Positions 1-31,940 of a stretch of 64,000 bases of DNA are shown in pieces. Positions within the stretch are counted from its first letter, which is position 1, and each line of letters opens with the position of its first letter. The DNA is from an uncultured Candidatus Saccharibacteria bacterium. Lineage in GTDB: Bacteria; Patescibacteriota; Minisyncoccia; Phycocordibacterales; JAACPR01. A program made the position numbers and the translations under genes. The stretch lies in contig CAZVRT010000003.1 in NCBI GenBank assembly GCA_964630375.1, forward strand, positions 41,972 through 105,971, in the 5' to 3' direction. The notes beneath the pieces were generated by a model. The model did not search any database, was not told the DNA's origin, and was given only the letters and a program-made list of their open reading frames with translations.

Positions 1-2730
1 GCAAAAACTTCGGGGCTTTTTCCATTGAATCAATAATTTCATCACTTGTTGGAAGTTTCTTTGTATATAGATATTCTCCAACTAATTGCTTTAATTTTTC
101 ATCTGAAATATTCTCTTCATTTGCAAGATTGTGAATCATTTTAAAACGTTCTGTATTCCAAAAACCATCAAAATAATTCTCAACGCTTGAATTTTGAGGA
201 ATATTTGGCAAATGATCTTCAATAAATTTTTTGATTAAATCTTTCTTTTTTCTAAGTTGAATATCTCTATCAAATATTTTCAAAATATCGTCTGTTTTCT
301 TTTTTCTAACATCATCAGAAGTAATATCTCTCAATCCTGCAATCAATTGTATGATATAATCAAAGTTAATTATATCTTTTAGAGTGAGTTCTATTTCAAA
401 ATCAATTTCATCTAAAATTGACTCTCTGTACCTTTCATCAGTTTTTCTTTCTTGATAAATGTCTAAATACTTACTTTGATAATCATAAAATTCTTGTTCA
501 GAAATTCCTAAATCATTAAAATTAAATTCTGCATAAGTTTCTAATGAAGATTTTATTCTCAATAAATCTCTAAAATCTTTAATAAAATCAGCTTTTTCTT
601 CTTCACCTCTTAAATCATCTACCGAATCAATTGTTGGAACTTTTTCTTTCAAAGATTTTAATTTCTCTTCAAAATCAATTTTCTGAGTTTCGTATGGTTT
701 TTTAAACACAACCTCTTTTGCATTCTCATCACCAAACAAAGCCAGCGCCTTATCTGTCGCCTCTTTTAAATTTCTAAAAGAAACAATATTTCCGTGAGGT
801 TTATCAGAACTTAGAAGTCTATTTGTTCTTGAATAAGCTTGAATCAATCCGTGATATTTTAAATTTTTATCAACATACAAAGTATTTAAAAACGGGCTAT
901 CAAAACCAGTCAGAAACATATTTACCACCAAAATTAAATCTATCTCTTTATTCTTAACTCGCTTTTGAACATCTCGATAATAATCATAAAAAATATTTGT
1001 AGAAAAATTAGTATTAAATTCTTGGTTATAATCCTTTATACAATCTTCAAGAAAATCTCTAGAATGTTGATTTATAGAATCTTCTTCGTCCAAGAAAATA
1101 TCGCCGTCCAACACATCAGGACTTTCATCTTCATTTGCTTGATATGTAAAAATTGTTGCGATTTTAAAATCATCAGACTTCAATTCTTTTAATTTTTTAT
1201 AATATTTTTTCAAAACATCTACGGACGAAACAGCAAATATTGCGTTAAACTTTCCATCTTTAGTTTTTCGATTCCAGTCACTCAAAATATATTCGGAAAT
1301 TTTTCCAATCCGCATATCACTTTCTAAAACTTCTCTTGAATTAATATCATCAACTAAAATATCTGTTTCAATCTGTTCATTTGAAATTATATCGGAATCT
1401 TTCTTTGTATATTTACCAACATACTCAACCGCAAAGCCAAGAACATTATTATCTGAAATTGCATTTGTAATAATATATTTATGCAAACAGTCACCAAAAA
1501 TATCTTTTGTTGTAGATTTTTGAATATTATTTTCAGCAAAAATTGGTGTTCCTGTAAATCCAAAAAGTTGAGATTGTGCAAAAAAGTTTTTTATCTTTGT
1601 GTGAGTTTTTCCAAAATGACCACGATGACATTCATCAAAAATAATCACAACTTTTTTATCTTTTAAATATTCAAGTTCTTTAGAAAATCTATTTTTACTT
1701 ACAGCCAATTCAAGCTTTTGTATAGTTGTAACAATAAGTTTTCGTTTTTGATCTTGCAATTGAGTCACAAGACTTCTTGTGTAATTTGTTCCATCAACAG
1801 AACCATCCGAAAATGAATTGAACTCTTTTGTTGTTTGAATATCTAAATCTTTTCTATCTACAACAAATAAAACTTTTTCAATTTCTGGCATCCTAGAAAG
1901 AATCTGGCTTGTTTTGTAAGAAGTAAGAGTTTTTCCCGAACCTGTTGTATGCCAAATATATCCATTTTTATTTGAATTTTTTACTCTTTCTTCTATGGCT
2001 TTTACCGCATAATATTGATATGGACGCAAAATCATTGGCGCTTGTTTCGCTTCTGCCAAAACAATATGTTCAGCTATAATTTCTGACAAAAAACATTTTT
2101 CCAAAAATACATTTGTAAACTCATTTAGATTTGTAATTTTTTTATTTTCTTTATCCGTCCAATAAAAAGTTTGTTCAAAATTTTGCTTTGGATTGTTTGA
2201 AAAATATTTTGTGTTTACTCCGTTTGAAATAACAAATATTTGTATGTATTCAAATAATGAATTTGAATATGAGTGTTTGTGATATCTTTGAATTTGATTA
2301 AAAGCCTCTTTCATTTCAAGTCCACGACGCTTCAATTCAATTTGCACCAATGGCAATCCGTTTATAAGTAATGTCACATCGTATCTGTTTGCATATCTTC
2401 CCTCTTGAGAAATTTGTTGAGCAACTTGATATTCATTTCTACACCATTGTTCGGTATTAAAAAATCTCATAGAAAAAGTTGTTTCGTTATCTCTTTTTAA
2501 ATTAAACCTATCTCGCAACGATTTTGCTTTGTAGAATCTGTCTCCTTTTAAAAGATGATTATAAATTTTCTCAAATTCCGGTTCAGAAAAAGTTGTTTCA
2601 TTAAAAATCTCGAGCTGTTTTTTAAGATTTTGCTCAAGGCTTTTTGAATCCGGCAAAACAACATACTCAAAACCACCTGTTTTAAGGTTTTCAATTAATT
2701 GCTGTTCGAGCTGTTGTTCGGATTGGGACA
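1..2730 (-). CDS. hsdR: Type I restriction enzyme R subunit (HsdR), N-terminal about 910 aa. The gene runs off the window start and is not in the ORF track.
   Basis: My own minus-strand translation starts with ATG at 2728-2730 (MSQSEQQLEQQ...). It contains Walker A HTTGSGKTLTS and the DEAD-box-like VVIIFDECHRG. No stop codon occurs before the window edge. Confidence 0.85.
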
Positions 2731-2735
2731 TATTT

Positions 2736-3068
2736 TTATTTTTTTAATATATCATTAACACGACTTTTGTCATTGTTAGCTTTATCTCCTTTGTAATACA
2801 TTTCTATAAAAAGAAGTTCTATTTTTTCGCAATCATATTTATAAATTACCCTAAAATCAGCGCCTTTTATAGATCTGCACATCATACGAACTTTAAATAT
2901 ACAAACCTCCTCATCTTGCGTTAATAAATTCCAGTGCCTTGTTCCGTCACCTTTTGGCTCTGCAGATATCGCACTTAAAAGAATATTAAAATCCCCTTCC
3001 AGAGTTGGATATTTTTTAGACAATCTTTTGAAATCTTTATTAAACTCATCCGTGCGGTAAACATTCAT
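2736..3068 (-). CDS. RelE/ParE-superfamily (HigB-like) type II toxin
   Basis: 110 aa. The C-terminal GADFRVIYKYDCEKIELLFIEMYYKGDKAN aligns with the RelE core (GDYRVIY..DDE..LVL..GHRKDVY). It lies 12 nt downstream of its partner on the same strand. Confidence 0.6.
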   Translation of the reverse strand: MNVYRTDEFNKDFKRLSKKYPTLEGDFNILLSAISAEPKGDGTRHWNLLTQDEEVCIFKVRMMCRSIKGADFRVIYKYDCEKIELLFIEMYYKGDKANNDKSRVNDILKK

Positions 3069-3080
3069 AATAAATTTACG

Positions 3081-3794
3081 CTACAACGGATCGTAATCTT
3101 TTACAGAAAACTCTTCCGAACGATAAAACACATGCTCGTACTCTAAATCTTCACCAAATTTTGCAGCTTTCCATGGCATATCACGATGCGAGATATCCGA
3201 TAATTGAGTGGCTGTTTTATCTGAATATCTATCAAGCACATCATCTATCATTTCAAGCTCTTGACCATTTAATAAACTTAGATCAGGTTTGGACAACGGC
3301 AAAAACTTCTTTTGGTCGTGAGAAAAAAATTTTGATTGAACAGCTACCAACTCTTCATTTGCAGCCATTGTTGCAACTACTTTTGTAAAATTTCTTGGAG
3401 CTGGACCGTGTGTATTTTTAAAATAAGTTAGCCCCATTAATTGTTTTTCGTATTTTTCATAATAATCAAAATCAATAAAGTATAGGAGTTTGTATAACAC
3501 AGTCATTCCCACATTTGGCTTTGCACCAACTTTTTCCAAAATATACAAGAGAACTTGTTTGAATTTTTCAATTTTTTCTTCTGGAACATTAAAACGAATT
3601 TGTTCCAGTTTTTCCTCCAACTCAAAAGACGCAAAAAAATCTTCAATTTTTTTGCTTTCTTCTCCTGTTAAATCTCGTTCTCCCTTTTCAATCTTTGCAA
3701 GTGTTTGTCTAGTTATTCCTAACACATTTGCCAACTGCTCTTGTGATACATCAAACTTCTTTCTTCTATTTTGAATTGATTGAACCATATACAA
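3081..3794 (-). CDS. HTH-XRE plus Panacea (DUF4065) domain antitoxin
   Basis: The N-terminus (QEQLANVLGITRQTLAKIEKGER) is a Cro/C1-type HTH. The central GMTVLYKLLYFIDFDYYEKYEKQLMGLTYFKNTHGPAP matches the Panacea LQKLLYFA..G.tY...yGPv core. It sits directly upstream of the RelE-like gene. Confidence 0.6.
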   Translation of the reverse strand: MYMVQSIQNRRKKFDVSQEQLANVLGITRQTLAKIEKGERDLTGEESKKIEDFFASFELEEKLEQIRFNVPEEKIEKFKQVLLYILEKVGAKPNVGMTVLYKLLYFIDFDYYEKYEKQLMGLTYFKNTHGPAPRNFTKVVATMAANEELVAVQSKFFSHDQKKFLPLSKPDLSLLNGQELEMIDDVLDRYSDKTATQLSDISHRDMPWKAAKFGEDLEYEHVFYRSEEFSVKDYDPL

Positions 3795-3907: not shown

Positions 3908-4111
3908 ATGCGTTATTATGTAAATAAAAATGCACAACCAAATGGTGACCATGAGGTTCATACATCTACTTGCAACTGGATTCCAAATTCAGAAAATAGA
4001 ATTTACTTAGGTGAATTTCTTTTCTGTTCAAGTGCTGTGTCTGAAGCTCGAAGGTACTTTAAACAATGTAATGGTTGCTACTACTGTGCAAATGCATGTC
4101 ATACATCGTAA
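3908..4111 (+). CDS. Small Cys/His-rich protein with a C-terminal CxxCxxCxxxC (ferredoxin-like) motif
   Basis: 67-aa ORF starting MRYYVNKN within track ORF 3833..4111. It ends ...CNGCYYCANACH. It is the only plus-strand gene in the locus and is followed by an intrinsic terminator. Confidence 0.3.
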   Translation: MRYYVNKNAQPNGDHEVHTSTCNWIPNSENRIYLGEFLFCSSAVSEARRYFKQCNGCYYCANACHTS

Positions 4112-4117
4112 AAAATA

Positions 4118-4160
4118 AAAGCCACTTTTCTTATCGCATTTGAAGAGTGGTTTTTATTTT
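4118..4160 (+). terminator. Rho-independent terminator after the small Cys-rich ORF
   Basis: 9-bp stem CCACTTTTC / GAAGAGTGG (4122-4130 with 4142-4150, one G-U pair), followed by a T-run at 4151-4155. Confidence 0.5.
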
Positions 4161-4205
4161 TTATTTACATAGTTAAACATTATTTAGATACGCTATCATA
4201 CTTAA

Positions 4206-5033
4206 TCATTTAAAATCTGAATCGTTAAAATAAACCAACACCACACCATGTTTGTCCACAACATTTTTTACAAAACTAATTTTCCTTTTAAAATTCTCAT
4301 TATCCGAGTAAGTATCTTTTGTCCATTCTTTGATCAAAATACCAAACGCACCCCTTACAAGCTCTCGTAAATCAATAGAAGATAACATAATTAGTGAACC
4401 ATTCTTTTTAGCAATAGCGCGTTTTTCCAACTGCATTACTCTGTCCCTATCTTGATTGGCGTAGATACCTATTGAATCCTTTGGCAATGAAAAGAAATGG
4501 ACTAAAGAATTACGAAGACGAATAATTTTACCAGAATCTAATTTTTTAAATCTATTCTTATGTAATTTATAATAATCATTATCTTCTGATAACAAAAACT
4601 TCTTAATAAATCCCTTCCTAAATTCAGGATCTTTCATTGCAATATTTCGTAAATCATTTTCACCATCGACCTCTTTTGAATACGCTATATACAAAAAATA
4701 CATGACCTCTAGCTGTGTAAACAAATGAATCATTTGAGTTCTTATGGGAATATGGTATTTCAAAACATCCGCAAAATTTCTAGGGTCTTTTTTTAAATTA
4801 TATGACCATCCTTCAACATTACTATCTTGTAAAGCCTTAGATAAACTCTCCGTTAATCCAAGTAATTCACTATAATATTCGCGTACTTCTTCAAGTCTTT
4901 TTTCAAACTCAAAGATAATATCAGACTCTCGTTCCATATCTATAAGAAAATCAAAAATTTTGCGAATATTTGGAGATATTTGTATATTTTTCCCATCAAA
5001 AACAATATGGGTACTTTCATTAAGTTTATTCAT
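4206..5033 (-). CDS. HEPN-motif (Abi_2/DUF4145-like) protein, a putative RM-linked abortive-infection RNase
   Basis: 275 aa. It contains RLRNSLVHF, which matches the HEPN Rx4-6H motif (RN..aH). It is located between hsdS and hsdR, the position PrrC/RloC-type genes occupy in other type I loci. Confidence 0.4.
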   Translation of the reverse strand: MNKLNESTHIVFDGKNIQISPNIRKIFDFLIDMERESDIIFEFEKRLEEVREYYSELLGLTESLSKALQDSNVEGWSYNLKKDPRNFADVLKYHIPIRTQMIHLFTQLEVMYFLYIAYSKEVDGENDLRNIAMKDPEFRKGFIKKFLLSEDNDYYKLHKNRFKKLDSGKIIRLRNSLVHFFSLPKDSIGIYANQDRDRVMQLEKRAIAKKNGSLIMLSSIDLRELVRGAFGILIKEWTKDTYSDNENFKRKISFVKNVVDKHGVVLVYFNDSDFK

Positions 5034-5044
5034 AATTCTTATTA

Positions 5045-6151
5045 TTATACAAACAACCTATATATCAAACCATTTTTCCATTCTTCTGCTTGGGTGATTT
5101 GTTCTTGTTTAGATTCTAGTAAGTAGTCAGCCAATGATAAAAATTCTGCGATTTTTTGTTGTTCTGATAATGATGGAACTAAAAAATTTCCCTTTTTAAG
5201 AATAGAAAAGTGCCTTTTATATCCTTCAGCCTGAATTGGATTTGACCATAGAAGATAATACAAAAATTTTATATTATCCTGATTTTTATTAACCAAAATC
5301 TTAGTTCCATCTGCCCCAATAACAAATTCAAAATCAATATATTTCAACATGGTCGTATGGTCGCCAAAAATAATTACGGGACTTTGTTTAAATAATTTTT
5401 TTGAATTATTTGAATATCCTGAAATTAAATCTTGTCCTTGATCAACTACTTTATATTTTCCTTCAACTAAAATCTCTGAGTTTTTGATTTGATATTCTTT
5501 TGTAGAAATATTTTTATAAAGTTCATCAAACCTCTTTTCTTCCCACTCTGCAAAATCATTTCCATTTTCGTCTTTAAAACGAATCTGCTTAGAAAAGATT
5601 TTTTGCATCAGACATTTTTTGTAGGATTCAAGGGATTTTTTCTGCTCTCGCAGATTTTCAATCCATTCATCCACACCACCCAAAAATGAAGCGATTTTTT
5701 GTTGTTCTGGGAGTTTTGGAAGATTTATTTTTATTTTTTCAATTGTAGTTTTTGAAAGGCTTGGAACTCCAGAAGCCTCATTGTACTTTTGCCAATTAAT
5801 TTTCTTGAAAATTGTTTCTGTAAATTTTGGAAGTATCCCATTAAAATCGTAAGTATAAAATAAAGTATCAACCGTCCAAAAATCCCCGTTATAATAAAAA
5901 GGTTTATCAATTGTTCCTTTCCGCCCAATCATCACAGACTCGCCTGAATAAAGCGACTCATCTACAGACAACATATAACCACCTGTACCAAAAACTGGAA
6001 TATCACCTTTTTTCAAATGCTTATAATCTCTTCCGTTTCCAATTTTTAGAACCTGCCCAATATTTTTCTCCTCCCACGCACCTTCAAAACCCGGAAAGCG
6101 AAGTTTGGGTATTTTGCTTTCAGTATTCTTTTGTATGCTGGTTTTTTGCAT
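5045..6151 (-). CDS. hsdS: Type I restriction-modification specificity subunit (HsdS)
   Basis: Two target-recognition domains separated by conserved regions LPKLPEQQKIASFLG and VPSLSEQQKIAEFLS..LIYRLF. Confidence 0.85.
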   Translation of the reverse strand: MQKTSIQKNTESKIPKLRFPGFEGAWEEKNIGQVLKIGNGRDYKHLKKGDIPVFGTGGYMLSVDESLYSGESVMIGRKGTIDKPFYYNGDFWTVDTLFYTYDFNGILPKFTETIFKKINWQKYNEASGVPSLSKTTIEKIKINLPKLPEQQKIASFLGGVDEWIENLREQKKSLESYKKCLMQKIFSKQIRFKDENGNDFAEWEEKRFDELYKNISTKEYQIKNSEILVEGKYKVVDQGQDLISGYSNNSKKLFKQSPVIIFGDHTTMLKYIDFEFVIGADGTKILVNKNQDNIKFLYYLLWSNPIQAEGYKRHFSILKKGNFLVPSLSEQQKIAEFLSLADYLLESKQEQITQAEEWKNGLIYRLFV

Positions 6152-6247: not shown

Positions 6248-7663
6248 TTAGAACTTTGCCTCATAATATGTGTTAATTGACTCCCCTTCTTGAGAAATAA
6301 GTCCGATATCTTTCATTTTTTTAAAGTCTGTCTTTATAGTTTCTGGAGACACTTCTGGAATTAAACCTTCAATTTCTCTTCTTGTTACTTTTCCTGATTC
6401 AATAACTTTTTCCCAAATCTTTAATTGACGAACATTAAGATGACTCAGTTTTTCTCCTGGCAAGATTACCTTAAAACTATTTGATGAGTTTTTAAAAATT
6501 GGCGGAAGTAACCCCCATTGAGACATTTCAGTAAATACAATATCAATACCTCGTCCATACTCTTCTAAATAATCTAAATCTTTTAACCGCCCTGCAATTA
6601 TTTTATTTCTACTCATCTGGGAATCTCGAATATTTTCAACAGTTACACCAAGTGGAAGATTTCCAGGATTATACACTTCGATACGGTCTTCAAAGATATT
6701 CACTTGAGTATATGTTTCAGTTATACGATAATCTCGGTGTATCACTGCATTTGCAACAATTTCACGAATTGCTTTTTCCGGATATTCATATTTTTCAATT
6801 CTCTTTGCTCCAATAATCTCAGCTCTCTTTTGAATATTTTTTAAAATAAAATGTTGCATTCCATCTATTTGTTCATCTAATGTTCCATCTAGATCAACAG
6901 AATCTAAAATATCTGAACTTACGCCAGAACCTTTATATCTAACACAACGAATTTTGTATCTTTCAAAAAATATTTTCTTTTGAGGTAGATCCTTTGCAAA
7001 AATAAGGAATCCAGCAATAGTTGGAACGAATGAACCATTATTATTTGTAATAATCCCTATGTTTTTTAGAGTTTCATTTTTTACTTCATTAAAATCTCGT
7101 TTTACCTTGTCTGCACTTTTAGCAAGAAAAAAATCAATTTTTTTAGTATCCAAATCATCCAACAAAGTATCTTCTGCTATCTTTTTATCATAGTCGTCAC
7201 CCTGTGCATTTTTAATAAAACTCTTCATTTCATCTTCTGTGATTTTTCTATCAGTATTTCCATCTCGAAGATACGCAGAACCCATGCCTGTTTTCTTTAA
7301 ATACACCGGTTTATCATGATTGCCTCTTTCAGGGACATATACAGCCAATACCTGTTTATTATTTAAATCTATAAAATAGAAATCAAGACGGATAACAACA
7401 CTCATATCATTACTTGTAAGTTGAGTTATTCTTTCTTGAATGTCAGCAAAATCAATTTCTACATGAGTTAATTTTCTCGTTTGCACATCTTCAGCAACAC
7501 CAAAAACAATAATACCTCCTTTTGTATTTGCAAAAGCAGAAATAGTATTACTTACAGGATCTTTTGAGAAACCACCCCGAGCATCTTTAAATTCTACAAA
7601 ATCCGTTTCTGTGTTTTGATGAATTGCTTGTTCTATTTGTTTTTTTATATTTTCTAAATTCAT
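6248..7663 (-). CDS. AlbA_2 (Schlafen-like 'divergent AAA') plus HATPase_c_4 domain protein, embedded in the type I RM locus
   Basis: N-terminal ...ETDFVEFK..ISAFANTKGGIIVFGV. C-terminal REIVANAVIHRDY...DRIEVYNPG, typical of the RecG-C-terminal-like ATPase domain. Confidence 0.65.
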   Translation of the reverse strand: MNLENIKKQIEQAIHQNTETDFVEFKDARGGFSKDPVSNTISAFANTKGGIIVFGVAEDVQTRKLTHVEIDFADIQERITQLTSNDMSVVIRLDFYFIDLNNKQVLAVYVPERGNHDKPVYLKKTGMGSAYLRDGNTDRKITEDEMKSFIKNAQGDDYDKKIAEDTLLDDLDTKKIDFFLAKSADKVKRDFNEVKNETLKNIGIITNNNGSFVPTIAGFLIFAKDLPQKKIFFERYKIRCVRYKGSGVSSDILDSVDLDGTLDEQIDGMQHFILKNIQKRAEIIGAKRIEKYEYPEKAIREIVANAVIHRDYRITETYTQVNIFEDRIEVYNPGNLPLGVTVENIRDSQMSRNKIIAGRLKDLDYLEEYGRGIDIVFTEMSQWGLLPPIFKNSSNSFKVILPGEKLSHLNVRQLKIWEKVIESGKVTRREIEGLIPEVSPETIKTDFKKMKDIGLISQEGESINTYYEAKF

Positions 7664-7724: not shown

Positions 7725-9302
7725 TCAAAACGGCTTATCAATCCCCAACTCCTCACAAAAATTTGCCAGCTTTGATTGCAAAGATTTTTCTTCTTTTTGT
7801 AAAGTTTGTAAATTTTTAGCAACTGCCTCAATATCAATCTCCTCTTCCTCTTCAAATGTATCGACATACCTAGGAATATTTAAATTAAAATCATTTTCAA
7901 TTATTTCTTCTAGTTTTGCATTGTGAGAATATTTCTCGATTTCTTTTCGGTTTTTATAAGTATCAAAAATTTTATCAAGATGTTCATCTGAAAGTGTATT
8001 TTGATTTTTATTTTTCAAAAATCCCTTAGATGCATCAATAAACAAAATTGAATTATCTTTTTTACGACATTTTTTAAATACCAAAATTGTCGCGGGAATT
8101 GATGTTCCGTAAAATAAATTTGAAGGTAACCCAATGACAGTATCGAGGTAATTTTGCTTTTCAATTATATATCTTCGAATCACCGCTTCCGCACCAGACC
8201 TAAATAGCGCACCGTGCGGCAACACAACAGCCATCGTTCCATTTTCAGCCAAGTGATGCAACATATGTGTCACAAATGCATAATCAGCGGCGCTCTTTGG
8301 TGCCAATCTGCCGTATTGAGTAAATCTTTCGTCTTGAGCAAGCACAGGATCTTCATCTCCTTTCCATTTTGCAGAAAACGGAGGATTGGCAATAATAGCT
8401 TCAGCTCTTAAATCAGGGAACATATCCTCAACAAGTGTGTCACCTTGCATAATTGAAAAATTTCTAAAATTCACACCATGCAAAATCATGTTCATCCTCG
8501 CAAGGTTGTATGTTGTTTGATTCAACTCCTGCCCAAAATAATCAGAAACATTTGTATAATCTTTCATTCTCAATAACAAAGAACCAGATCCACAAGTCGG
8601 ATCGTAAACAGATTTAATTCTTTTTTTATCGTCTGAAACAATTCTTGCCAATAATCTAGACACTTGCACAGGAGTATAAAATTCTCCCCCCTTTTTTCCT
8701 GCTCCAGCAGCAAATTCTCCAATCAAATACTCATAAGCATCACCAAGAATGTCACTCTTTGGATTATCCAAATCAAAATCAATTTCATTTAACAAAGAAA
8801 ATATTTCTACAACAACTTCATTTTTTGCATTTTCTCTTGAACCTAATTTATTTGAATTTAAATCAATGTCTTCAAACAAACCTTTGAAGTCATCTTCGCT
8901 TTCTGTTCCTGAAGAAGTTTTTTCAATATGATTAAAGACTTTTTTAACATCTTCGATAATAAAAGTATCTTGCCCTTTGATTTTTCCTTTACCTTTCTGA
9001 ACAATATATGAAAATAATTCTTTTGGTTTCAAGAAAAAACCTAAATGCTCTAAACAAGCTTCTTGTATATGCTCAAGATATTCTTTTCCCTCTTTGGTTT
9101 TTTCATCAACTTCCTCAAACTTTAAACCCTCATCGTTAAGGAGTTTTTCATTAACATATCCTTCAAGTCTTTCAGATAGATATTTATAGAAAATGAATCC
9201 AAGAATATAGTTTTTATACTCATCAGCATTCATTTTGCCTCGAAGAATATTTGCCACCGCCCAAAGTTGTTTCTCTAAAATCTTCTTCTGATCTTCTGAC
9301 AT
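7725..9302 (-). CDS. hsdM: Type I RM N6-adenine DNA methyltransferase (HsdM)
   Basis: Motif I VYDPTCGSGSLLL and motif IV IIANPPFSAKWKG (NPPF). Confidence 0.9.
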   Translation of the reverse strand: MSEDQKKILEKQLWAVANILRGKMNADEYKNYILGFIFYKYLSERLEGYVNEKLLNDEGLKFEEVDEKTKEGKEYLEHIQEACLEHLGFFLKPKELFSYIVQKGKGKIKGQDTFIIEDVKKVFNHIEKTSSGTESEDDFKGLFEDIDLNSNKLGSRENAKNEVVVEIFSLLNEIDFDLDNPKSDILGDAYEYLIGEFAAGAGKKGGEFYTPVQVSRLLARIVSDDKKRIKSVYDPTCGSGSLLLRMKDYTNVSDYFGQELNQTTYNLARMNMILHGVNFRNFSIMQGDTLVEDMFPDLRAEAIIANPPFSAKWKGDEDPVLAQDERFTQYGRLAPKSAADYAFVTHMLHHLAENGTMAVVLPHGALFRSGAEAVIRRYIIEKQNYLDTVIGLPSNLFYGTSIPATILVFKKCRKKDNSILFIDASKGFLKNKNQNTLSDEHLDKIFDTYKNRKEIEKYSHNAKLEEIIENDFNLNIPRYVDTFEEEEEIDIEAVAKNLQTLQKEEKSLQSKLANFCEELGIDKPF

Positions 9303-29853: not shown

Positions 29854-30138
29854 TTGCGGGGCCCGGAATTGCACCGGGGTCTAGAGGTTATGCTTACTAC
29901 TATGATTTTCATCACCACAATTGTGTTTGTAGTCTGGACTATGCCATCACCCTCTTTTTAAAAGTAGGGTGTCTACCGTCTAGTCTCTACACCTTCAAGT
30001 CATTTAGACAAGCTTGGCTCGGCATTGCCAACCTGTATAAGGTAAGGTTTCACCGAATTTGGCAGATTCTCAATAAAAATTTCTTTTTATTGGGCCCTTA
30101 AATTTGAGCCTCTCGAGGTACTACTCCTCCACCCCGCG
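29854..30138 (-). tRNA. Initiator tRNA-fMet (CAT) gene split by a group I intron. Exon 1 is 30107-30138, exon 2 is 29854-29892.
   Basis: Joined exons give CGCGGGGTGGAGGAGTAGTACCTCGAGAGGCT|CATAACCTCTAGACCCCGGTGCAATTCCGGGCCCCGCAA. C1-A72 mismatch, A11:U24 pair, anticodon loop CUCAUAA. The 5' exon is very similar to E. coli tRNA-fMet. Confidence 0.75.
29893..30106 (-). mobile_element. Group I self-splicing intron (214 nt) in the tRNA-fMet anticodon loop
   Basis: 5' splice site after a U; IGS GGGCC; P2 hairpin. P element AAATTCGG (30047-30060) and Q element AATGCCGAGCC (30016-30026). R element GAGACTAGACGG (29976-29987), P8 hairpin CACCCT..AGGGTG, S element CATAGTCCAGAC (29932-29943). P7 pairs GACUA with UAGUC. 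Terminal omega-G. Confidence 0.7.
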
Positions 30139-30255: not shown

Positions 30256-30936
30256 ATGTCTGATACCAAAAATAAAGAAAAAGCAATCTATTTAAGAAAA
30301 CAAGGTTTTAGCATTAACGATATATCTAAAAAATTAAACAAAAATAAAAGCACTATCAGTTATTGGTGCAGAGACATTAAACTAACAAATAAACAAATTA
30401 AAATTATTCAAGAAAAAATAATTACAGGAGGACAAAAAGGTTCATTGATCAGATCAAAGAAACTGCAAATTGACAGAAAAATTAAAAACAAAAAATATTC
30501 AGATTTAGGCAAATCAGATTTGGGAAAAATATCAAAAAGAGATTTGTTTATGATTGGATTGGCTTTGTATTGGGGTGAAGGATATAAAAAAGGAAATTAT
30601 GAATTTGGTTTTACAAACAGTGATCCTAGAATTATAAAAACATTTTTAACATGGTTAAAAGAAATTTATGAAATATACGAAGATAAGTTTATTCTTAGGG
30701 TTTCTATAAATCAATTACACAAACATAGAGAAAAACAAATCATCAATTTTTGGCAAAAAATTACAAAAACTCAGAAATCACAATTTACAAAAACTAGTTT
30801 TATAAAAACTGAACCTAAAAAACAATATAAAATAAACAATGACTATTATGGAACTTTGAGAGTAAAAGTTCGTAATGGCGCAAATTTACGCAGGAGAATA
30901 ATGGGCTCACTAGAAAAAATTTCAGAAATTATTTAA
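30256..30936 (+). CDS. Free-standing LAGLIDADG-type homing endonuclease with an N-terminal HTH
   Basis: The dodecapeptide-like motif LFMIGLALYWGEGYKKG, followed by YEFGFTNSDPRIIKTFLTWLKEIY, resembles single-motif LAGLIDADG enzymes. The N-terminal IYLRKQGFSINDISKKLNKNKSTISYW is a resolvase-type HTH. Confidence 0.55.
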   Translation: MSDTKNKEKAIYLRKQGFSINDISKKLNKNKSTISYWCRDIKLTNKQIKIIQEKIITGGQKGSLIRSKKLQIDRKIKNKKYSDLGKSDLGKISKRDLFMIGLALYWGEGYKKGNYEFGFTNSDPRIIKTFLTWLKEIYEIYEDKFILRVSINQLHKHREKQIINFWQKITKTQKSQFTKTSFIKTEPKKQYKINNDYYGTLRVKVRNGANLRRRIMGSLEKISEII

Positions 30937-31940
30937 ATGAAATAAAATTCTTCAAAGACTTGCCGATACAAATCAATTACTCTTTCAGCTTCAGATTTTG
31001 AAAATAGAAAATCCCCTCCTCTGTGCGCAATGTGATTTCTAATTTTGTGAGCTTCCCAAGCTTTATTCAAAGTAATAAAGTCACTTTCTTCAATTTTCTT
31101 CAGCCTATCACCAATTGAGTCGCCTTCGTATCCCATTCTGATAAGCATTTCATCAAGAATAATATCAGCTTCAATAATTGCCTGTCGCCAATCACTTGAA
31201 GATGAAGATTGAATCAAATTTTGTACACGCACCCATCTTTCATTTTTTGGACCAGTTGGAGTTTGTTCTTCAACTTCAAAAGAAAATCCTAATGCACTTG
31301 CATCTCCTGTCGGCAAATTTTCAGGCAATCCCAAACTCGCCAAACTAACAGGCTCAGATTCTTGTTGATATTTTTCTTTCATCTTTCTTTCCAAAGATAA
31401 TTCTTGAAGTTCTTTTTTACTATTTATCAAAGAAACTGCTTTCTTTTGTTTTTTAGAAATATGATAAATCAACAACAAAAATATTAGAGCCAAAATCAAA
31501 CCAATCGGTCTAAAAATATCCAAGAAAATTGGAAAAATATTTAAAGCTCGAAACAAACCAACATTACTTGTGATATCTTTCGCCTCTACCCAACCATCAG
31601 GAATTTTTTGATAATCAATTCGATACCAATGTCTTCCAAAAGCTTCAACAGGACCTTCCAAAATTTGTCCGATGGCTCTTTTTGATTGCTCACCAATTAT
31701 TGCACCGGCTGGCACTTGTCGAACTTTTATATCTGTAATATTTGCAATTCTTTTTCCTATTGCTAAATCACCAACTGGCAAAATTCTTAAATCACTTGAG
31801 GTGTTTCCAATTTCTAAATTTTGCTCTTCAACTTTTGAATTAAATTTATCAACATAAAATCCAAGAAGAAACACAATGAAAATCATTGCGTAAACACCAT
31901 ATATCAATCCGTTATCAGCACCAGTTGGTTTGTCTGCCAT
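30933..31940 (-). CDS. Two-TM membrane protein with a C-terminal HEPN/DUF4145-like motif
   Basis: TM segments IYGVYAMIFIVFLLGFY and IGLILALIFLLLIY. The C-terminus has AWEAHKIRNHIAHRGG (RN..aH, Rx4H). Confidence 0.35.
   Translation of the reverse strand: MADKPTGADNGLIYGVYAMIFIVFLLGFYVDKFNSKVEEQNLEIGNTSSDLRILPVGDLAIGKRIANITDIKVRQVPAGAIIGEQSKRAIGQILEGPVEAFGRHWYRIDYQKIPDGWVEAKDITSNVGLFRALNIFPIFLDIFRPIGLILALIFLLLIYHISKKQKKAVSLINSKKELQELSLERKMKEKYQQESEPVSLASLGLPENLPTGDASALGFSFEVEEQTPTGPKNERWVRVQNLIQSSSSSDWRQAIIEADIILDEMLIRMGYEGDSIGDRLKKIEESDFITLNKAWEAHKIRNHIAHRGGDFLFSKSEAERVIDLYRQVFEEFYFI

Follow-up and report, generated by a model that had tools for sequence, protein, structure and literature searches.

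What does a small gene encode when it fills the gap between hsdS and hsdR of a type I restriction-modification (R-M) system, the slot otherwise known from prrC, and is its product functionally tied to the restriction enzyme beside it? The question is raised by a 64,000-nucleotide stretch of DNA from an uncultured Candidatus Saccharibacteria bacterium (contig CAZVRT010000003.1; hereafter the window), in which an open reading frame (ORF) with an ATG start at 4206..5033 on the minus strand, here called gene X, encodes a protein of 275 residues. Identified from the ORF call and its homologues, gene X belongs to an unannotated family and is a probable HEPN-type RNase. Both the gene and the family that it belongs to are real, their motif is invariant and HEPN-like in its placement, the linkage to hsdS and hsdR is conserved, and the divergences of the linked genes co-vary. 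A HEPN fold, RNase activity, latency, a trigger and a role in defense we infer. The reading that we favor, with a probability of roughly 0.55, is that X, an RNase of HEPN type that is as yet unclassified, travels and is expressed together with a type I R-M system of the EcoR124 kind and acts as a latent second-line effector.

The most telling feature of the protein is a short motif. Residues 172-179, RLRNSLVH (nucleotides 4520..4497), include the candidate catalytic Rx4H motif R174-N175-S176-L177-V178-H179 (codons at 4497..4514, minus strand), which lies within an extended conserved block, LRNSLVHFFS (4488..4517, minus strand). In an alignment of 84 diverse relatives with a mean column identity of 25%, R174 and H179 are the sole invariant columns, at least 90% conservation is reached by N175, L177, F180, R98, F105, N152 and E36, and the motif consensus in the family reads LRNsLtHFFS. 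A lone RNxxxH has a chance of about 1% of occurring in a protein of 275 residues, by a back-of-envelope calculation with typical residue frequencies, and is not rare; judged from the aligned sequences, it is the conservation pattern of the motif, and not its mere presence, that exceeds chance. In the published description of HEPN proteins, the arginine of the Rx4-6H motif is as a rule followed by N, D or H, the motif sits at the end of helix-3 where it enters the loop before helix-4, and helix-2 often bears an acidic residue, commonly as Ex3[KR] (PMC3710099). The motif of gene X has the Rx4-6H spacing with a polar residue after the arginine. A candidate for the acidic residue is E109, on helix 97-120, which is invariant in the close homologue set, with E or D at that position in almost every one of the 84 sequences (alignment inspected by eye).

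Structure prediction with AlphaFold2 (AF2), applied to the full-length protein and to residues 84-275 with 84 sequences, bears on the position of the motif. In the model of residues 84-275 (predicted local distance difference test, pLDDT, 94.2; predicted template modeling score, pTM, 0.87) and in the full-length model alike, helix 167-179 ends at H179 and passes into coil according to DSSP, a HEPN-like placement of the motif in the predicted structure. The conserved, mostly helical core, delimited from the AF2 models and conservation at residues 96-265 (4239..4748, minus strand), comprises helix 97-120 with R98, F105 and E109, inserts at 125-162 with N152, the motif helix, a strand-helix-strand insert at 189-218 and helices 219-243 and 245-262. 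The N-terminal part, residues 1-95 (4749..5033, minus strand), has a pLDDT of 60-87 in the full-length model, where a beta-hairpin (10-19) leads into a long helix (21-70) followed by a return segment, the whole resembling a helical “stalk.” On these models, a HEPN core may be mapped onto the protein with the first part of the long helix (residue 21 onward) as helix-1, the stalk as an insert at about 45-95, helix 97-120 with E109 as helix-2 followed by the insert at 125-162, helix 167-179 as helix-3 followed by the strand-helix-strand insert, and helix 219-243 as helix-4. An earlier description of the gene made from the letters of the window, without database searches (the sequence-only reading), had picked out RLRNSLVH as a form of the HEPN Rx4-6H motif, and this has held up well: nothing else in the family is as strongly conserved as the motif, with its arginine and histidine invariant and its predicted position at a helix end.

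The family itself is rare. A word-index search of a 5.8-billion-protein set returned 18 relatives at 39-63% identity, all of them unnamed, and a profile re-search of that set with E up to 10 found only P0146 beyond these; when 1.84 billion cluster representatives were searched exhaustively with the profile, 210 clusters emerged at E<1e-3 and 79 at E<1e-30. The named source metagenome-assembled genomes of the relatives are from Paceibacterota, Gracilibacteria, Wolfebacteria, one uncultured Gammaproteobacteria and one unclassified bacterium, and the family is found largely in uncultured small-genome bacteria; no relatives were found in plasmids or phages by tblastn or in a scan of viral contigs. 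Most members are 255-285 residues in length. A subset of short forms (200-250 residues) matches from about residue 95 onward together with a short N-terminal piece. Short forms of about 205-225 residues lack roughly residues 45-95; the N-terminal hairpin is retained in them, as is the FLxxIExE sequence, also conserved, with which the helix begins. In six short forms (P0140, P0159, P0163 and three others), an N-terminal SEC-C zinc-binding motif, matched with E down to 1e-8, replaces the beta-hairpin and stalk.

Comparison with curated profiles points, weakly and repeatedly, in the same direction. The protein of the window has no match in Pfam, NCBIfam or PADLOC. When the 84 relatives were scanned singly, HEPN_Apea was the Pfam family that matched the largest number of them (8/84, with a best E of 0.0024 and a best score of 17.2 bits against a cut-off of 24.4), and RiboL-PSP-HEPN was matched, again below threshold, by two; the sub-threshold matches in PADLOC were to Cas13a (7/84), Cas13-ApeA (3/84) and DUF3644 (1/84). 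The recurrent non-HEPN matches in PADLOC, to E2, E1-E2 and PDC-S12 in four to six members each, are attributed to the SEC-C motif of the six short forms, a link that is unmapped. In a scan of the C-terminal domain (n=53), the motif is covered by the HEPN_Apea match (profile 44-122 of 136, in P0112) and by HepT-like matches in three members (profile ~73-104 of 120); matches to HEPN_Swt1 and DUF3644 both cover the LRNxLxHF block, as does one of the two matches to 23S_rRNA_IVP. All sub-threshold HEPN-model matches with a mapped position thus cover the RNx3H motif, and we consider it probable that gene X belongs to the HEPN superfamily.

The second line of evidence is genomic context, which was judged by gene calls, Pfam marks and tblastn with HsdM, HsdS and HsdR of the window. 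Gene X lies directly after hsdS and upstream of hsdR in about 11 independent loci, the window included (the others being L001/2, L003, L005, L006, L008, L010, L013/14, L015, L016/18 and L017). The junctions are tight. Between hsdS and X there is a 4-nucleotide overlap in six loci (L001, L003, L006, L013, L014 and L015) and a small gap of 0-11 nucleotides in most of the rest, and between X and hsdR a 4-nucleotide overlap in three (L003, L005 and L017) and a gap of 0-5 nucleotides in L008, L010 and L016. Pairwise identity of X correlates with that of HsdR (rho 0.60) and of HsdM (0.49), a level comparable to that of HsdM versus HsdR (0.65), and X diverges about twice as fast, with 54-70% identity where HsdM and HsdR have 80-89%. 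Because its divergence co-varies with that of HsdM and HsdR, X is a long-term passenger of the EcoR124-like R-M lineage. Among the loci examined, a survey of neighborhoods for co-occurrence with hsdS and hsdR, of the kind that the sequence-only reading had proposed, yields about 11 linked loci, though relatives occur without R-M genes as well.

In the window, the minus-strand order is hsdM, an AlbA_2/HATPase_c_4 gene, hsdS, gene X, an HTH_3 plus SocA_Panacea gene, a 110-residue ORF and hsdR, just as the sequence-only reading had listed it and as Pfam and translation now confirm. The methyltransferase subunit gene hsdM lies at 7725..9302 (minus strand; Pfam N6_Mtase 1e-109, HsdM_N 9e-23) and the specificity subunit gene hsdS at 5045..6151 (minus strand; Pfam Methylase_S 9.3e-30, in two stretches), its stop codon 11 nucleotides upstream of the start of gene X. 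Inserted between the two is the AlbA_2 (Schlafen-like) and HATPase_c_4 gene at 6248..7663 (minus strand; Pfam 2e-19 and 7e-22), which also matches the pAgo model of PADLOC at 1e-24. The restriction subunit gene hsdR, at 1..2731 on the minus strand and truncated at its C-terminal end where the window stops, has an open frame of 914 codons and matches Pfam HSDR_N, SWI2_SNF2, T1R_D3-like and EcoR124_C (6e-52) domains. Because HsdR carries EcoR124_C, the host, in which HsdM, HsdS and HsdR are all present, is by its domains an EcoR124-like, type IC-like type I system; type IC is formally defined by complementation group, and the assignment here rests on the HsdR domain.

A bidirectional intrinsic terminator hairpin (A-tract, stem and U-tract) was recognized from its folding energy at 4109..4163, with a minimum free energy of -15.8 kcal/mol, a z of -5.1 and none of 200 shuffles folding as well. 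It was not detected by a simple consensus scan, probably because its loop is 11 nucleotides long. Because this hairpin lies directly 3' of gene X, gene X closes the hsdM-hsdS unit and is co-transcribed with it, as the last cistron of an hsdM-albA-hsdS-X transcription unit in the window, and hsdR is in a separate unit. The sequence-only reading, which spoke of one type I R-M operon, had overlooked both the terminator and a small ORF at 3911..4111 (plus strand), convergent with gene X, with which the hairpin is shared.

How the protein relates to effectors already described is best seen from the HEPN families known to be embedded in R-M operons, which include Abi2, AbiU2, AbiJ, ApeA, EC042_2821 and PrrC/RloC (PMC3710099). 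Like PrrC, whose host system EcoprrI belongs to the type IC family, X has its gene between hsdS and hsdR in an R-M system that is EcoR124/type IC-like, bears what is predicted to be an RNase motif of HEPN type and could plausibly serve as a back-up in defense. Unlike PrrC and RloC, it has no N-terminal ABC/NTPase domain, being a protein of 275 residues with no P-loop or ABC match in Pfam, NCBIfam or PADLOC, so that its description as compact and ABC-less stands. It also differs from PrrC in giving no sequence match to PrrC models, in that its motif is the classical RNx3H and in that its relatives are not always linked to R-M genes. Homology to PrrC or RloC was rejected, as there is neither an ATPase domain nor a match, and the analogy of position was kept.

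ApeA, a HEPN abortive-infection effector, offers a second comparison. The ApeA protein (HEPN_Apea, PF18739) is a single-protein anti-phage tRNA anticodon nuclease. Its HEPN domain is the Pfam family with matches in the largest number of X family members (8/84), and ApeA genes lie within R-M operons in some bacteria (PMC3710099); X, however, matches HEPN_Apea only below the cut-off and is too short for the beta-rich sensor domain of about 300 residues, ApeA-NTD1, in place of which it has the short beta-hairpin and helical stalk. With Abi_2 (AbiD/AbiF) and DUF4145 it shares the RNxxxH form of the motif, and these too are standalone or small proteins that are often found in R-M operons (PMC3710099). 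Membership in Abi_2 (PF07751) or DUF4145 (PF13643), a likeness that had been drawn from the form of the motif, was nevertheless rejected, since the window protein matches neither at E up to 10 and neither was listed for the 84 members. As for HepT (DUF86), three members of the X family match the motif region of a HepT-like profile below threshold, whereas X is double the size of HepT and contains large inserts, and no adjacent MNT antitoxin gene was found in those loci with gene calls that were examined.

If the favored reading is right, X would be a HEPN-superfamily endoribonuclease that stands alone and needs no metal, in a family for which current libraries have no model. The predicted active site would consist of R174, N175 and H179, where a core helix ends, and the conserved acidic E109 on the preceding long helix may assist catalysis. 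Given the shared transcription unit and the tight or overlapping junctions, X is produced together with the methylase and specificity subunits. In normal cells it would be latent, as a second-line effector of the abortive-infection type, and would cut cellular or phage RNA once an infection gets past restriction. The usual target of related enzymes is tRNA. A latent second-line role has been proposed for many R-M-embedded HEPN families (PMC3710099) and demonstrated for PrrC and ApeA. Since some relatives have no R-M genes beside them, sensing of the trigger by the protein itself or through its stalk is more likely than a trigger imposed by obligatory sequestration in the R-M complex.

Several observations weigh against this reading, with respect both to the fold and to the tie with restriction. 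No curated HEPN model was matched at threshold, the best E being 0.0024 and the scores falling short of gathering cut-offs, and the sub-threshold matches are all anchored on one short motif. Family consensus sequences and ten short forms compared with Pfam gave SEC-C only and no HEPN match. Searches of PDB sequences with the family profile and two members found nothing relevant, and hhalign against a DUF4145-like protein of the window (30933..31940) aligned only the 9-residue motif, with a probability of 2.4%. The Ex3[KR] common in HEPN helix-2 is absent from gene X. Foldseek with the C-terminal model of pLDDT 94 gave no PDB match (best E 3.5, template modeling score at most 0.23) and no BFVD match; matches obtained with the full-length model were discarded as BAR/coiled-coil noise driven by the long helix. 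Many HEPN structures have been deposited in the PDB, and Foldseek performs poorly on helical bundles. That difficulty notwithstanding, the missing match is genuine evidence against a canonical HEPN fold.

As to the tie with restriction, P0004, which is 62% identical to the window protein, is found without R-M genes (L026/27), flanked by housekeeping-type genes and a gene for an unknown 234-residue protein. Full-length relatives likewise lie beside recR (L004), era (L009) and recQ (L019/20) with no R-M genes; in L004, L009, L019 and L020, of which L009 is labeled Gracilibacteria, the genes are intact only with UGA as a sense codon (table 25). Short forms occur among ribosomal or housekeeping genes (L011 and L012) or small unknown genes (L023-25). 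When the neighbors of X in R-M and non-R-M loci were compared, no conserved, antitoxin-like partner gene was seen. Moreover, the hsdM-hsdS and hsdS-hsdR gaps hold unrelated cargo in different loci, including DUF3800 (L008 and L018) and DUF2806 (L015) genes and genes for unknown 271-residue and 349-residue proteins, and because of this the co-location may reflect a cargo hotspot. In three loci (L006 10832..12085, L013 2127..3380 and L014 2772..4025), a gene for a 417-residue AAA_15/AAA_21 ABC-type ATPase follows X and precedes hsdR. The pairing of a HEPN-motif gene with a separate ABC ATPase in these loci recalls the two halves of PrrC. Large serine recombinase or Prim-Pol/AAA_25 genes lie near the R-M and X clusters in four loci (L001 765..2312, L003 16617..18122, L005 1..1351 and L006 2184..4262), which suggests that these clusters are on integrated mobile elements.

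These observations are accommodated differently by the rival explanations. A very confident model without a fold match, the lack of a family match above threshold and a likeness to HEPN models limited to about 30-80 residues around one motif would all be expected if X were no HEPN nuclease but a novel helical protein, such as an accessory of the methyltransferase with a structural or regulatory role, or a nucleic-acid binder, with the arginine and histidine used for binding or other chemistry. We regard this as decidedly unlikely, given that exactly an arginine and a histidine are invariant, with HEPN spacing, a polar residue after the arginine and placement at a helix end; that the weak matches recurring among members are, of about 24,700 Pfam families, almost all to HEPN ones, the main exceptions being traced to the SEC-C motif of the six short forms; and that HEPN toxins typically occur in such a genomic context (PMC3710099). 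Alternatively, X could be an autonomous single-gene abortive-infection or toxin gene that rides an R-M cargo hotspot with no functional tie to restriction. The variety of gap cargo (AlbA_2, DUF3800, DUF2806, the AAA_15/AAA_21 ATPase, the Panacea toxin-antitoxin genes and the unknown 271-residue and 349-residue proteins), the occurrence of X alone elsewhere and the lack of a conserved partner gene agree with this explanation, but X alone of the gap cargo keeps to a single position, in about 11 loci, it shares overlapping start and stop codons with hsdS and hsdR, and it diverges in step with HsdR and HsdM, all of which make this explanation doubtful.

At the other extreme is the strict guardian of the PrrC type, in which X would bind HsdM and HsdS, and possibly HsdR, perhaps by its stalk, be silenced there and fire upon a phage anti-restriction factor, making it a minimal guard without an ATPase. 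The obligatory silencing of X by the R-M complex that this entails is not supported, because full-length relatives, one of them 62% identical, live away from R-M genes; relatives without them span 35-62% identity, whereas prrC is reported to be always linked to its silencing R-M locus, and rloC rarely so (PMC3458546). The order in the window, with X followed by a terminator and a toxin-antitoxin module placed before hsdR, also argues against a strict guardian, which is a pure analogy. The slot and the type of R-M family are nonetheless the same as for prrC, translational coupling to hsdS and hsdR favors co-assembly, and the divergence of X co-varies with that of HsdR and HsdM; overall, we judge such a guardian unlikely. 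The PrrC-like slot noticed in the sequence-only reading is thus well founded, with hsdS-X-hsdR in about 11 loci and an EcoR124_C host, and the idea that the R-M complex holds X in check is weakened by the relatives outside R-M loci. In a version that we think quite improbable, an ATPase-free HEPN RNase would be co-translated and assembled with HsdS and HsdM through the stalk, and released or activated when the type I enzyme comes under attack by phage proteins. If this were true, surveillance of the PrrC type would be achievable by a single small domain, and L006, L013 and L014 would split the logic of PrrC over two genes, X and the ABC-type ATPase.

The concept of a HEPN effector within an R-M operon is already known, because a catalogue of 2013 already lists standalone HEPN RNases embedded in such operons and PrrC serves as the textbook “restriction guardian.” The X family is new, being absent from Pfam, NCBIfam and PADLOC and having no structural neighbor by Foldseek, and the remark in the sequence-only reading that the protein upstream of the motif matches nothing is borne out by Pfam, PADLOC, NCBIfam and PDB sequences. 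Adding the family to libraries of defense genes would improve the annotation of R-M islands in these lineages. As X is found both inside R-M operons and alone, it also provides a tractable case in which to ask whether embedding in an operon reflects functional coupling or co-transfer.

Other features of the window touch on this locus to varying degrees. Between gene X and hsdR, an antitoxin gene with HTH_3 (2e-12) and SocA_Panacea (2e-18) Pfam domains at 3081..3794 (minus strand) is followed after 12 nucleotides by the 110-residue ORF at 2736..3068 (minus strand), which has no family match in Pfam, PADLOC or NCBIfam and whose stop lies 4 nucleotides before the start of hsdR. Together (2736..3794, minus strand) they form a Panacea-type toxin-antitoxin pair, apparently co-transcribed with hsdR, and so give the gap between hsdS and hsdR a second cargo module. 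The small Cys-rich ORF at 3911..4111 (plus strand) encodes 66 residues from an internal Met, has the motifs GDHEVH and CxxCxxxC with only faint matches of Fer4 type, and is called as a gene on an independent Logan contig (L007) too.

Farther away, the gene at 30933..31940 (minus strand) encodes a second protein of the window with a HEPN-like motif, unrelated to gene X. Its 335 residues include hydrophobic, probably membrane-spanning N-terminal segments and a C-terminus with KIRNHIAHRG, and it matches DUF4145 (HEPN-type) below threshold (E 0.059, profile 5-86 of 88). Close by, an apparently intergenic segment at 29915..30116 (minus strand), where ARAGORN calls no tRNA, matches the full Rfam group I intron model with 76.8 bits (E 1e-17), and is adjoined on the opposite (plus) strand by an HTH-containing ORF of 226 residues at 30256..30936.
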